Assembly (NCBI GenBank): GCA_964355175.1
Contig: CAYHBZ010000002.1
Coordinates: 332,537 to 396,536, forward strand
Source of the DNA: an uncultured Gammaproteobacteria bacterium
GTDB taxonomy: Bacteria; Patescibacteriota; Patescibacteriia; Magasanikbacterales; GWA2-37-8
Direction: 5' to 3'
Length of the DNA: 64,000 nt
Shown: positions 3,470 through 63,763 of the stretch, piece after piece
How the letters are laid out: every line of letters begins with the position of its first letter
How positions within the stretch are numbered: position 1 is the stretch's first letter
Notes under the pieces: generated by a model
What the model was told of the DNA's origin: nothing
Database searches by the model: none
What the model saw: the letters and a program-made list of their open reading frames with translations, nothing else
Program-made: the position numbers and the translations under genes

Positions 3470-4573
3470 ATGATTATTGGAATCGACGCTTCTCATGCCA
3501 ACAAAGCCAGCCGTACCGGCGTGGAGGAGTATTGTTTTCAGATGATAGAAGAATTTAAAAAAATTATCCCGTCCCAGGCGCGGGTAATTTTATTTTCACC
3601 CACGCCCTTGGTTTCTGAATTTTCAGCTTTGCCGGCGAATTGGGAGGTAAAAATTTTGTCATGGCCATTGAAAAAATTATGGAGCCAATTTTGTTTGGCC
3701 TATGAGCTGTGGCGACATCCGGTAGACATTTATTTTTCTCCCGGACAACTACTGCCATTTTTTGCGCCTAAAAATTCGGTAGTGATGATCCACGACAGTG
3801 CTTTTGAGGCTTGTCCGAAAGCCTATAGTTTTTGGGGAAGGCAGTATTTAAAGTGGATGAATAAGCTTATAGTGAAAAAATCCAAATTAATTTTGACCTC
3901 TACTCAATTTAACAAAAGTGAATTACTTAAGTATTACAGTTATTTTTTTGAAGAACAAAGAGATTTGTTTGATAAAATAAAAGTAGTTCCTTTGGCTTAT
4001 GATAACAAAAAATTTAATCTAGAAGCGGTGCCAGTGGAAAATTCGTTTGGTAAATATATTTTATCAGTGGGTCGTTTGGAAGAAAAAAAGAACACCAAAA
4101 CTATTATTGAAGCGTTTGAGTTATTAAAAACAAAAATTTCAGATTTAAAATTAATTTTGGTTGGACGACCTGGATCCGGATATTTATTAATAAGAGAAGC
4201 GATTGATAATAGTGATTATAAAAAAGATATTTTGGAAATAGGTTTTGTGGATGATATAGTCGACATTGTTAAGAACGCTCAAGTCTTTGTGTTTCCTTCA
4301 TTATACGAAGGTTTTGGTATCCCGGTGTTGGAGGCAATGGCGATGGGTGTGCCGGTAGTGGCGAGCGACATTGAGGCGTTGCACGAAGTCGGTGGTAAGG
4401 CGTTGGTATATGAAACTAACGTGCAGGATATGGCTGATAAAATATTGAGATTGATGAGCGAGACTGAGTTTAGACAACGACAAGTGAATTTAGGCCTGGA
4501 TTTGGTGGCAGAATTTAGTTGGGAGAAGACAGCTACGAATAGTTGGAATCATATATTAACAATCCTAGATTAA
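3470..4573 (+). CDS. GT4/GT1-family glycosyltransferase
   Basis: C-terminal EGFGIPVLEAMAMGVPVVASD motif typical of retaining GT4 enzymes. Confidence 0.8.
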   Translation: MIIGIDASHANKASRTGVEEYCFQMIEEFKKIIPSQARVILFSPTPLVSEFSALPANWEVKILSWPLKKLWSQFCLAYELWRHPVDIYFSPGQLLPFFAPKNSVVMIHDSAFEACPKAYSFWGRQYLKWMNKLIVKKSKLILTSTQFNKSELLKYYSYFFEEQRDLFDKIKVVPLAYDNKKFNLEAVPVENSFGKYILSVGRLEEKKNTKTIIEAFELLKTKISDLKLILVGRPGSGYLLIREAIDNSDYKKDILEIGFVDDIVDIVKNAQVFVFPSLYEGFGIPVLEAMAMGVPVVASDIEALHEVGGKALVYETNVQDMADKILRLMSETEFRQRQVNLGLDLVAEFSWEKTATNSWNHILTILD

Positions 4574-14982: not shown

Positions 14983-15055
14983 GCCGTTGTAGCTCAGTTG
15001 GTAGAGCATTTCCATGGTAAGGAAAAGGTCTCGGGTTCAAATCCCGACAACGGCT
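14983..15055 (+). tRNA. tRNA-Thr(GGU)
   Basis: Cloverleaf folded by hand: acceptor GCCGUUG/CAACGGC, D-arm GCUCAGUUGGUAGAGC, anticodon loop AUGGUAA, T-arm UCGGGUUCAAAUCCCGA. Confidence 0.8.
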
Positions 15056-15094
15056 CAAGTGAGCCTCTACTTAGATTCTCACATACCAAATTAT

Positions 15095-15170
15095 GCCGGC
15101 TTAGCTCAGTTGGTAGAGCAACGGTTTTGTAAACCGTAGGTCTAGGGTTCGAATCCCTAAGCCGGCTCCA
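15095..15170 (+). tRNA. tRNA-Thr(UGU), CCA encoded
   Basis: Acceptor GCCGGCU/AGCCGGC, anticodon stem ACGGU/ACCGU with loop UUUGUAA, T-arm UAGGGUUCGAAUCCCUA, 3' UCCA. Confidence 0.8.
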
Positions 15171-33909: not shown

Positions 33910-34085
33910 TCCTCTGTCGTCAGCCCAACAGCCCCACTCGCTACAAGCGGGCAGTGGGGCAGACGCGGTAGATATCACTCGCCGCGCAATTTGAAAATAA
34001 CATATTTGTTTTCAGATTGTGCGAGTGATATAAACGCTTAAAAAATAAAACACACCAATTAAATTTGGTGTGTTTTTTGTTTTGT

Positions 34086-40296: not shown

Positions 40297-40386
40297 TTAT
40301 TTGCCTAAAACACCGCTCGTCCCTTTTTATTCCTAAACAAAAAACACTTCAGATTAATTATTTAAAATGAAGTGTTTTTTAATTTG

Positions 40387-46129: not shown

Positions 46130-46178
46130 CTCGGGTTGTGGATTGTTCGTGGCTCCGTTTTATGGTATAATTATTTTA

Positions 46179-46344
46179 AGAAATAAATCTAATAATTTTT
46201 ACCTGATAAAAGTTCGCATAATTGGCTATAAATTTTCGTTATGGCCCTAAGGGTAGGGCCATTGCCCTATCGGGCATCACTCAAATTTATTTACGCCAAT
46301 TAGGGGCTCACTTTTATGCGGTAAAAATTATTAAATTTATTTCT
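46179..46344. repeat. ~145-nt structured repeat (MITE-like / candidate structured RNA), copy 1
   Basis: Core TTTACCTGATAAAAGTTCGCATAATTGGCTATAAATTTTCGTTA..GCCCTA..GGGC..CACTCAAATTTATTTACGCCAATTAGGGGCTCACTTTTATG.GGTAAAA. About 93% identical to copy 2 at 54090-54255. The terminal 24-bp inverted repeat is GAAATAAATCTAATAATTTTTACC / GGTAAAAATTATTAAATTTATTTC. Confidence 0.6.
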
Positions 46345-46369
46345 TAAAATAATTGTCAACTTTAAAATA

Positions 46370-61086: not shown

Positions 61087-61112
61087 ATTCCTCACTTCGT
61101 TCGGAATGACAG
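61087..61112. repeat. short intergenic repeat unit (TCCTCACTTCGTTCGGAATGACAG)
   Basis: Variant of the CCCTCAYTTCRTTCGGNATGACAG motif also seen at 61842, 62970 and 10001. Confidence 0.5.
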
Positions 61113-61272
61113 CGTACAAAAAATAAAAAAGGTCCTAGAAGTGTTCGGTATAAGCAATGAGTAAAGGAGGGGGTACTCACGCTCTACCAAACACTCTCAG
61201 GACCTTTTTGAATGTTTGTATATATATTATAACAATCTCATTTTGGACTGTCAAACGTTTTCTGTGGACAAC

Positions 61273-62465: not shown

Positions 62466-62519
62466 GTCGAAGTTTTGGCATTGCTTAGTCCGTCGGCGTT
62501 AAAGCTTCGGCGAACAAAG

Positions 62520-62915
62520 TGGAGGTGGCGAGAGTTGAACTCGCGTCCAAATAATTTTGAATATACCATCTACATGCTTAGGCTGCTTATTTTTTTAAGT
62601 TGATGGATAATAAACAGACGAAATTCCAGCAACCGAGCAAGATTTACTTTCGGCTATAGTCATCTTACAGTAACTAAAGCCTACTTTCCGTGAGTGACAC
62701 CGCTTTGCGTTACGGAACCTTACGCAGGCGATGGGAAGCGGTTATTAAGCCGCAACCGGAGCAAAGCTGAAGCTAGGGCTAAAAGCGCTAGCAAGAGCAG
62801 TCTTTACTTTTGATAACAAGTTTGCACTTATTATGTGTTTCGAGGATTTACGAGGTTCAAAACGCCCTCGGCATGCGAGTGTACTCAGAAACTTTTGTCA
62901 AAGCCCAGCACCCCC
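62520..62915 (-). ncRNA. ssrA: tmRNA (ssrA), ~396 nt
   Basis: Reverse complement starts GGGGGUGCUGGGCUUUG and ends ..GGACGCGAGUUCAACUCUCGCCACCUCCA (tRNA-like T-arm plus a 7-bp acceptor pairing with the 5' end). Internal tag reading frame GCA AAC UUG ... GUU GCG GCU UAA UAA, ending ..APVAA then a double stop. Adjacent to smpB. Confidence 0.7.
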
Positions 62916-62940
62916 GACATTGAAAATTTTTAATTTTCAA

Positions 62941-63028
62941 GTGTCATCCTGAACGCAGTGAAGGATCCCTCATTTCATTCGGTATGACAATGAGTGATAA
63001 AGATTCTTCGCTTTGCTCAGAATGACAT
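62941..63028. repeat. cluster of three short intergenic repeat units between ssrA and smpB
   Basis: GTGTCATCCTGAACGCAGTGAAGGATCCC + TCATTTCATTCGGTATGACAATGAGTGATAAAG + ATTCTTCGCTTTGCTCAGAATGACAT. Mutually complementary arms. Confidence 0.55.
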
Positions 63029-63035
63029 CTGAAAA

Positions 63036-63476
63036 TTAATCTTTTAAAGATCTTTTCATTTCTCTTTCGGTGTCGCGTTTCTTGATAGTTTCTCTTTTAT
63101 CGTATTGTTTTTTACCGCGACCGACAGCGATTTCCACTTTGATAAATCGATTTTTAGTATACACTGAAAGTGGCACGATTGTCAAGCCCTTTTCGGCCAA
63201 TTTTCCTTGTAAATAGCGGATTTCTCGCTTGCGTAGGAGCAGACGACGGCTAGCGGTGGGTTCGTAGTCGGGGAGATTGCCGGCTTGAGGGTATTTGCTA
63301 ATATTGGCATTAGTGAGATACGCATCGCCATTATGGAAGGTGACATAAGTGCCTTTTAGTGACATATGTCCGGCCTTTATGGATTTAGTTTCTTGGCCAG
63401 TCAACACCAAACCAGCCTGGAATTTTTCCAGGATTTCATAATCAAATAAAGCTTTTTTGTTACTGGCTAAGGACAT
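63036..63476 (-). CDS. smpB: SsrA-binding protein
   Basis: ..ALFDYEILEKFQAGLVLTGQE.. SmpB signature. 146 aa. Confidence 0.9.
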   Translation of the reverse strand: MSLASNKKALFDYEILEKFQAGLVLTGQETKSIKAGHMSLKGTYVTFHNGDAYLTNANISKYPQAGNLPDYEPTASRRLLLRKREIRYLQGKLAEKGLTIVPLSVYTKNRFIKVEIAVGRGKKQYDKRETIKKRDTEREMKRSLKD

Positions 63477-63509
63477 ATTGCGTTTATTTTAGCATAAATA
63501 ATAGTAAAA

Positions 63510-63717
63510 ATCAACCTTTTACCCCGCCACCGCCCCGCCTGGTTTGGGGGATTTTTTGCCATTGCGAAGCTCTTGGAAACAAATTAATAAATTTTTTAGT
63601 AAAATGCCGCTGTTTGAGCGAAGCGAGTTCGGCATTTTATGTTAAGAAAAATTTGTTAATTTGTCCAAAGCGAAGCACAGGCAAAAAATCCCCCAAACCA
63701 GGCGGGGCGGGGTTGAT
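63510..63717. repeat. long GC-rich inverted repeat (~35-bp perfect arms) with nested palindromes in the ~120-nt spacer
   Basis: Arm CCCCGCCTGGTTTGGGGGATTTTTTGCC at 63533-63560 has its exact reverse complement at 63680-63707. The spacer holds AAAATGCCG..CGGCATTTT and GGAAACAAATTAA..TTAATTTGTCC palindromes. Confidence 0.6.
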
Positions 63718-63763
63718 AAAAAAAGTTGTTTTTTTTGGGTTTTTATGTTATTATCAAAATAAT

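Follow-up and report, generated by a model that had tools for sequence, protein, structure and literature searches.

A dispersed palindromic repeat of Candidatus Magasanikbacteria with a conserved centre and site-specific closing stems, probably mobile DNA rather than a riboregulator

The two structured repeats located upstream of corA and ligA in the window, i.e. the whole 64,000-nucleotide stretch of DNA analysed here, are probably copies of a non-autonomous, MITE- or REPIN-like mobile DNA palindrome with a reversed pattern of conservation, rather than a riboregulator of these two genes. Each copy has a conserved Y-shaped centre enclosed within a closing stem, which differs from site to site yet always pairs, with few mismatches. 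Judged from the comparison of its sites, the element behaves like selfish mobile DNA and unlike a strand-specific RNA or a regulator of its neighbours. Within the reach of the searches, the family is confined to a few related members of Candidatus Magasanikbacteria (CPR/Patescibacteria).

The two copies and their component parts are listed in Table 1. Alignment confirms both structured repeats where the first-pass annotation had placed them, with a shared core that is 93.3% identical, and the genes for CorA (46370) and LigA (54295) lie just downstream of copies 1 and 2, as it had described. The closing stems were measured by extending the pairing outward from the conserved ACC/GGT. They differ in sequence, in agreement with the original description, and are longer than it had indicated, reaching 37 bp in copy 1 and 27 bp in copy 2. 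All 27 pairs of copy 2 are Watson-Crick; copy 1 carries one C.A mismatch (46189/46334), so that its pairing is not perfect. Within the 5' arm of copy 1, the outermost 5 nt overlap a -10-like TATAAT, the inner 14 nt agree with the family consensus, and the last 8 nt (TTTTTACC) are family-conserved. The compensatory pair reported for the internal hairpin (GGCCCTA/TAGGGCC versus GGCTCTA/TAGAGCC) was also reproduced, and represents one of two alleles that are present in several genomes.

Table 1. Positions of the two copies of the repeat, of their parts and of adjoining segments in the window
Feature	Position	Strand	Evidence
Copy 1 (W1), entire 190-nt palindrome: locus-specific closing stem and conserved core	46167..46356	+	Stem extension; RNA and DNA folds; vacant orthologous site in L020 and L029
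Copy 1, conserved core, hairpin-1 allele AUGGCCC	46193..46330	+	Covariance model R1, 163 bits; alignment
Copy 1, closing stem, 5' arm	46167..46203	+	35 Watson-Crick, 1 G.T and 1 mismatch over 37 positions
Copy 1, closing stem, 3' arm, beginning with the conserved GGTAAAAA	46320..46356	+	Stem extension
Copy 1, apical hairpin 1 (AUGGCCCUA-AGGG-UAGGGCCAU)	46241..46262	+	Fold; 3 pairs with both-side changes across copies
Copy 1, apical hairpin 2 (UGCCC-UAUC-GGGCA)	46263..46276	+	Fold; alignment
Copy 2 (W2), entire 171-nt palindrome	54087..54257	+	Fold; stem extension; vacant orthologous sites
Copy 2, conserved core, hairpin-1 allele ACGGCUC	54103..54241	+	Alignment; covariance model R1
Copy 2, closing stem, 5' arm	54087..54113	+	27/27 Watson-Crick
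Copy 2, closing stem, 3' arm	54231..54257	+	Stem extension; homologous to, but diverged from, the 3' arm of the L023 orthologue (14/19 positions)
Copy 2, apical hairpin 1	54151..54172	+	Fold
Copy 2, apical hairpin 2	54173..54186	+	Fold
37-nt segment from copy 2 to the ligA ATG	54258..54294	+	Likewise missing from the empty sites of relatives
Extended -10-like TGGTATAAT of corA	46163..46171	+	Read directly; L020 counterpart 3926-3944

Each copy folds as one long rod tipped by two small hairpins. The minimum free energies of the RNA folds are -65.5 kcal/mol for copy 1 and -80.6 kcal/mol for copy 2 (z = -10.2 and -11.8), and 0 of 200 shuffles were as good. The minus strand and the single-stranded DNA of both copies fold equally well, so that folding alone identifies neither the strand nor the molecule.

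On the consensus structure of the 13 full copies, 99.7% of the core pair cells are standard pairs. Both-side changes occur in 11 of the 52 core pairs, compared with 3.7 ± 1.2 when the columns are shuffled (none of 500 shuffles attains the number observed) and 3-4 in slid controls, and only two core cells are G.U, each being a single-side change with the G.U on the plus strand. The arms of the closing stems, taken over 12 copies, comprise 376 Watson-Crick pairs, 3 G.T pairs and 9 mismatches in 388 positions. Between orthologous palindromes the arms diverge at a roughly neutral rate and are still paired, with three concordant two-arm changes seen. The standard pairing of the core, the both-side changes above controls and the concordant changes of orthologous arms together uphold the earlier proposal that pairing is actively preserved. 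The near-absence of G.U is easier to reconcile with pairing that is upheld in the DNA, or in both strands, than with selection acting on a single RNA strand.

In all, 17 loci belong to the family, 13 of them with complete copies, and they come from six or more related genomes or metagenome bins. A core 22-mer search returned ten copies in Candidatus Magasanikbacteria Ike-150m-44 (the Ike MAG) and one in a Lake Pavin MAG, and a 20-mer from the other half of the core returned one further copy from a JGI metagenome. Through orthologous loci we found a third copy of the window genome (L033, on the 463-kb ENA contig NODE_6), a copy in GCA_040384245.1 (L023) and a copy in a Logan assembly (L039). 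Two loci, L013 and L014, were discarded as chance 20-mer matches. Several contigs end within the element, since repeats of this kind break assemblies.

Covariance model R1 detected no further or diverged copies over 261 kb, and the terminal 20-mer had no further match in the window or the loci. The Rfam search that had been suggested for the repeat matched no family at the gathering thresholds; at E ≤ 10, the best sub-threshold hit was MIR7533, a plant miRNA model (34.9 bits against a cut-off of 230). No relation to tRNA or tmRNA was found, and collections of phages, plasmids and viral contigs gave no match to the element. In the literature searched, there is no described family for the element, and nothing specific on CPR MITEs or on insertion into terminator loops.

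The core comprises about 137 nt (TTTTTACC...GGTAAAAA), with a mean pairwise identity of 91% and a range of 86-100%. Its unpaired internal loops (UCGCAU, AGGGGCUC and ACGCC) are nearly invariant among the copies. Hairpin 1 exists in two alleles (AUGGCCC... and ACGGCUC...), both of which are present in both well-sampled genomes, and hairpin 2 is hypervariable across copies in its loop and the top of its stem, with the stem always Watson-Crick. Between the window genome and the Ike MAG, the core identity amounts to 89-97%, compared with 79-85% for genes. The core is under strong constraint, and its pairing is clearly maintained.

Comparison within and between genomes gives some indication of how this similarity arose. 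Copy 2 and L033, which belong to the same genome, are identical over the 137 nt of the core and have unrelated arms. About 7% of positions are different between copy 2 and its orthologue, L023. All three copies of the window genome, which include both hairpin-1 alleles, have a T where every other genome has a C. These observations suggest recent spread or within-genome conversion between copies, in addition to strong constraint on the core. In this small sample of 13 full copies, the high identity between species could alternatively stem from recent horizontal transfer. Conservation of the whole core, unpaired loops included, would also be expected of a functional RNA.

The closing stem, by comparison, is unique to each copy and 23-40 bp long. 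The 14 nt adjoining the core diverge fast but follow a degenerate family consensus with 55% identity (13 pairs agree at 11 or more of the 14 positions, against 0.3 in shuffles), and inner arms are common to copies at unrelated loci (L009, L033 and L039; L005 and L007). The TTTTTACC/GGTAAAAA terminal repeat is conserved over 8-10 bp, yet varies in L006, L011 and L012. Beyond the inner 14 nt or so, the arm sequences of one copy bear no relation to those of another (37% identity). This observation does not sustain the original reading of the two outer stems in the window as covariation of a single helix; their difference seems to be mostly that between unrelated, locus-specific palindromes.

As for placement, 12 of the 13 full copies lie no more than 18 nt from the 3' end of a gene, and in several the arms take in the stop codon of one neighbouring gene or of both. 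Six of the sites are convergent, four are tandem and one is divergent (copy 1), with a single neighbouring gene in the available sequence at the other two. At the tandem sites, two copies run along transcription and two against it. The position at 3' ends and the mixed orientation argue against a strand-specific RNA and against the supply or sequestration of a ribosome-binding site, which had been proposed on the basis of an AGGGG...ATG at the 3' end of the element. The motif is present, but its ATG opens a frame of only two codons (ATG CGG TAA or ATG TGG TAA), and copy L002 has ATA in place of the ATG after AGGGG. A ribosome-binding site or mini-ORF was rejected on the grounds that the two-codon frame is not conserved and most copies are without a downstream start. 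A small peptide within the core was also rejected, as the hairpin-1 ATG is ACG in half the copies.

In most arms the 5' side is rich in A and the 3' side in T, and most copies of the Ike MAG have this composition and abut stop codons. Such arms resemble the ordinary terminators of the window genome, which are built of an A-tract, a stem and a T-tract with AT-rich apices (34040-34083 and 40339-40380). Since a palindrome reads alike on both strands, the A/T-rich composition says nothing on orientation. A scan for consensus terminators made no call at either window copy.

The gain and loss of the element can be followed at orthologous sites. Contig L020 of the Ike MAG is syntenic with the window from 42 to 64 kb, at 79-85% nucleotide identity. 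At the ligA site, 212 nt separate the peptidase A24 stop codon from the ligA ATG in the window, compared with 1-2 nt in L020, L026 and L029 and 14 nt in L024; in L023 the site is filled. A different hairpin-like insert, of 141 nt, is found at the same junction in L028 (1265-1405). The peptidase A24/ligA junction repeatedly acquires structured inserts.

The corA site is empty in L020 and L029, where TGGTATAAT is followed by 6 nt and the ATG (TATAAT-N6-ATG), and corA looks leaderless in these relatives, as far as can be read from this spacing. With the 190-nt palindrome in between, the -10 box of corA in the window genome is set apart from the ATG, which has no Shine-Dalgarno sequence. The -10-like box was not called in a consensus promoter scan because it has no -35 element. 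As both window sites are empty in relatives, both window copies are insertions.

A pre-existing palindrome at the window sites was rejected, because none is present in the empty relatives (four for copy 2 and two for copy 1). The arms of both window copies are absent from the empty sites, and they bear no significant similarity to inverted copies of the recipient flanks (p = 0.07-0.65); elsewhere in the sequence searched, they gave low-complexity matches only. Direct target-site duplication was not found at the copies. The flanks are instead reverse complements (CA..TG in L010 and L033, GA..TC in L004), and the AT/TA flanks of the other copies are self-complementary and hence uninformative on target duplication.

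These results bear on the contention of the first-pass annotation that the repeat is not a passive MITE, which is not supported: the repeat is dispersed and subject to gain and loss, i.e. the MITE-like alternative named in the heading of that annotation itself. It had associated a typical MITE with many further copies having identical termini; many copies were found, but their termini are not identical. With the termini being the least conserved part and no target duplication, the element fails the classical definition of a MITE. A pre-existing palindromic target, which had been raised as another explanation of the outer stem, is present at a single site, and neither of the window sites has one.

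That one site is the convergent junction of RarA and TsaE, which holds the element in L004, L033 and L039 and lacks it in L036 and L037; the C-terminus of RarA (...YFGK-stop) is native in all orthologues. In L037 the junction reads GGAAAAT-AA-ATTTTCC and the two genes overlap. L036 has a perfect 18-bp hairpin, GGAAAATAAACAAAAAAT-loop-ATTTTTTGTTTATTTTCC, with a 9-nt loop and without the element. The Ike MAG copy L004 has the same outer 18 bp as L036, save for a matching C-G to T-A change in the two arms, followed by 10 additional paired bp and the core. In L033 of the window genome, 43-bp arms with the same A-rich motif precede the core, and in L039 the arms are related and the core is reversed. 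The outer stem at this junction is most simply read from these alignments as host DNA, with the element at the apex of a terminator-like hairpin that is shared by the two convergent genes. The L036 hairpin could alternatively be a remnant after loss of the core.

A structured non-coding or cis-regulatory RNA under selection at the RNA level, whose closing stem need only pair and whose copies upstream of genes control a ribosome-binding site, is an unlikely explanation of these data. The folds are indeed very stable, both-side changes are significant in both apical hairpins as well as the closing stem, and the core, with its unpaired internal loops, surpasses protein genes in between-genome conservation; the two single-side changes being G.U on the plus strand is likewise what this explanation favours. 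However, only 3 G.T pairs occur in the 388 arm positions despite heavy divergence, and the copies are oriented either way relative to the flanking transcription, with the core inverted at one orthologous locus. A conserved promoter is impossible because the flanks differ at every copy. The location of nearly all copies at gene 3' ends rather than 5' ends, the unconserved two-codon frame after AGGGG, the lack of an Rfam family, and the origin of both window sites by recent insertion also count against an RNA function.

Also unlikely, though slightly less so, is a transposon that targets hairpin loops, of which only the core of about 137 nt moves into the apex of pre-existing palindromes, either terminators or older hairpin elements, so that every outer stem is host DNA. 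The native 18-bp hairpin of L036 stands exactly where L004 and L033 hold the element inside the same arms, and L029 has on its own the 70-nt hairpin whose apex holds the core of a second family (50874-51051) in the window. The A-tract/stem/T-tract terminators of the window genome with their AT-rich apices, the identical cores of W2 and L033 in unrelated arms, and the precedent of IS1397, ISKpn1, IS621 and ISPpu9/10, which are IS elements inserting into REP palindromes (PMC1525189), point in the same direction. Yet the relatives are free of hairpins at both window sites (a 1-2 nt spacer and TATAAT-N6-ATG), and the inner 14 nt of the arms are common to unrelated loci, implying that part of the stem travels with the element; hairpins made of arms only could equally be remnants of core loss. 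Very improbable, finally, is a snap-back (rolling-hairpin-like) intermediate, in which one arm and the core are copied as a single strand and synthesis back along the 5' flank is then primed by the 3' end annealed to the base of the core, so that the closing stem of the new copy is perfect, partly new and includes donor flank. It would explain the perfect Watson-Crick arms despite rapid divergence, the absence of the arms from empty recipient sites, the shared inner and unique outer arms, and the recurrence of one design in three unrelated core families. No donor flank matching any arm occurs in the sequence searched, however, no candidate polymerase, reverse transcriptase or nickase was identified, and the outer arm at RarA/TsaE is native to the recipient. 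The two-armed apex also resembles a parvovirus ITR, a likeness that was dropped because the two hairpins keep one order with respect to the asymmetric internal loops, without flip/flop in the core, and there is no viral context.

Taking the copies to be a mobile DNA palindrome, we suppose that the element moves as a folded single strand or by recombination, and that the mobilising enzyme probably recognises the whole folded core. Such recognition would account for a core that is conserved beyond the level of genes. The element may be tolerated at gene ends through keeping or creating an A-tract, a long hairpin and a T-tract, which would still terminate transcripts, or protect them, from either side. 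Presumably the arms are kept Watson-Crick by arm-to-arm copying of DNA (hairpin template switching or conversion), by selection on both transcripts, or by both. The core appears to flip, as it lies the opposite way in L039 at the same locus and the centre of another palindrome is inverted between two genomes; the mixed orientations would follow if a core flanked by perfect inverted arms can be turned round. The roughly 260 kb searched revealed no transposase or autonomous partner, and tblastn with approximate Y1/RAYT-like queries, a weak test, gave nothing below E = 0.4 in this sequence.

A broader proposal, which we regard as quite unlikely, is that these CPR genomes carry a class of mobile hairpins, with at least three unrelated core families in the window. 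At each move the stem would be rebuilt from one arm by snap-back or template switching. The newborn palindrome, perfect and partly new, would act as a portable two-way terminator, and the core, conserved more strongly than protein-coding genes, would serve as the folded nucleic-acid signal for the mobilising enzyme.

The closest of the known systems differ from the element in instructive ways. REPINs are REP doublets that form hairpins and are mobilised by RAYT Y1 transposases. Like the element, they are short, non-autonomous intergenic repeats that form one long hairpin in single-stranded DNA or RNA, show compensatory changes, and lie in extragenic positions, often between convergent genes. 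Compensatory changes across the hairpin are common in REPINs (PMC3116915). In REPINs, however, the ends are conserved (the REP 16-mers) and the spacer is variable, whereas the element has a conserved centre of about 137 nt and variable ends. The element occurs in about ten copies per genome compared with hundreds for REPINs, which are accompanied by a RAYT, and the weak test mentioned above revealed no RAYT-like gene in about 260 kb.

ERIC/IRU, YPAL and Correia-type elements are imperfect palindromes of 100-170 nt that lie in intergenic, co-transcribed DNA in either orientation, and are thought to act as RNA hairpins that affect the ends and the stability of transcripts. ERIC, at least, is conserved across species above the level of neutral DNA, and Correia elements have conserved terminal inverted repeats and a TA duplication. 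The element has no sequence similarity to any of these, with no Rfam, plasmid or phage match, and resides in a CPR host; unlike Correia elements, it has locus-specific termini and no direct duplication. With classical MITEs it shares a small size, the lack of coding sequence, dispersal, inverted-repeat boundaries and variable presence between relatives, but its terminal inverted repeats are reduced to 8-10 bp (TTTTTACC/GGTAAAAA), target-site duplication is lacking and no related IS was found in the sequence searched.

The IS elements that target REP sequences resemble it in inserting into a palindromic host structure, as the RarA/TsaE locus and the second family suggest. They are autonomous and have sequence-specific REP targets, whereas the host hairpins here vary and two of the three tested sites are hairpin-free. 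Integron attC sites are alike in being recombination sites of folded single strands with a conserved structure and a variable sequence. They have conserved R/L boxes at the base of the stem, a variable apex and cassette arrays next to intI, whereas the element has the reversed pattern, no GTTRRRY-type ends and copies among housekeeping genes.

The window contains other repeats, and a second and a third local family share the build of the element. The second palindromic repeat (50874-51051) folds, over 186 nt, with -80.7 kcal/mol and z = -10.6, and its core is 78% identical to a copy of the Ike MAG (L005, 4427-4535) that lies in different arms. In the window this core is at the apex of a 70-nt hairpin (AATTGGCTG...CAGCCAATT), which occurs alone in L029 (4575-4644) and is absent in L020. 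The motif AATTGGC...GCCAATT is present both in the core of the element and in the host hairpin of the second family, probably by chance. The third palindrome (63483-63757), downstream of smpB, has a central 137 nt that is 95% identical to, but inverted relative to, L020 19026-19162 of the Ike MAG; its flanking arms are unrelated to those of L020, and in the window they are unusually GC-rich (CCGCCCCGCCTGG...).

The interval from the tmRNA gene to smpB contains, at 62930-63039, a REP-like motif in the form of an inverted doublet (GTCATCCTGAACGCAGTGAAGGATC / GATTCTTCGCTTTGCTCAGAATGAC). L020 lacks this doublet and has a 5-nt spacer, and L026 and L023 have a different filler of 30 nt; related single motifs are found at about window position 61090 and at about position 330 of L027. 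A further inverted repeat (61115-61220) has 36-nt arms that are 81% complementary, with the inner boundary ...CGGTA / TACC.... The tmRNA gene itself (62517-62915, minus strand) encodes the long tag peptide ANLLSKVKTALASAFSPSFSFAPVAA.

Several features outside these repeats were also recorded. On the plus strand, 15850-16062 matches the Rfam group I intron model at threshold (50.6 bits against 50), between a tRNA-Thr pair (14983-15170) and tRNA-Trp (17084). On the minus strand, 38268-38401 matches the AdoCbl (cobalamin) riboswitch with 51.9 bits against a cut-off of 50. Between corA and cysS, a 718-aa ORF (47274-49430, minus strand) has no Pfam match, and L020 and L029 have in its position a gene of 222-225 aa for a CDP-alcohol phosphatidyltransferase, indicating that gene content differs between the relatives.

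The mobile DNA of CPR/Patescibacteria is poorly described, and the element reverses the usual rule for small repeats, in that the ends may change provided that they pair, and the centre is under tighter constraint than protein-coding genes are. Where paralogous copies of such repeats seem to covary, a functional RNA should not be deduced from it. For these MAGs there is also a practical consequence, as the element breaks their assemblies. The copies lend themselves to a natural experiment on the way in which long DNA palindromes are kept perfect, through copying from arm to arm or through selection on both transcripts, and they bear on whether self-folding insertions supply or preserve terminators in very compact genomes.
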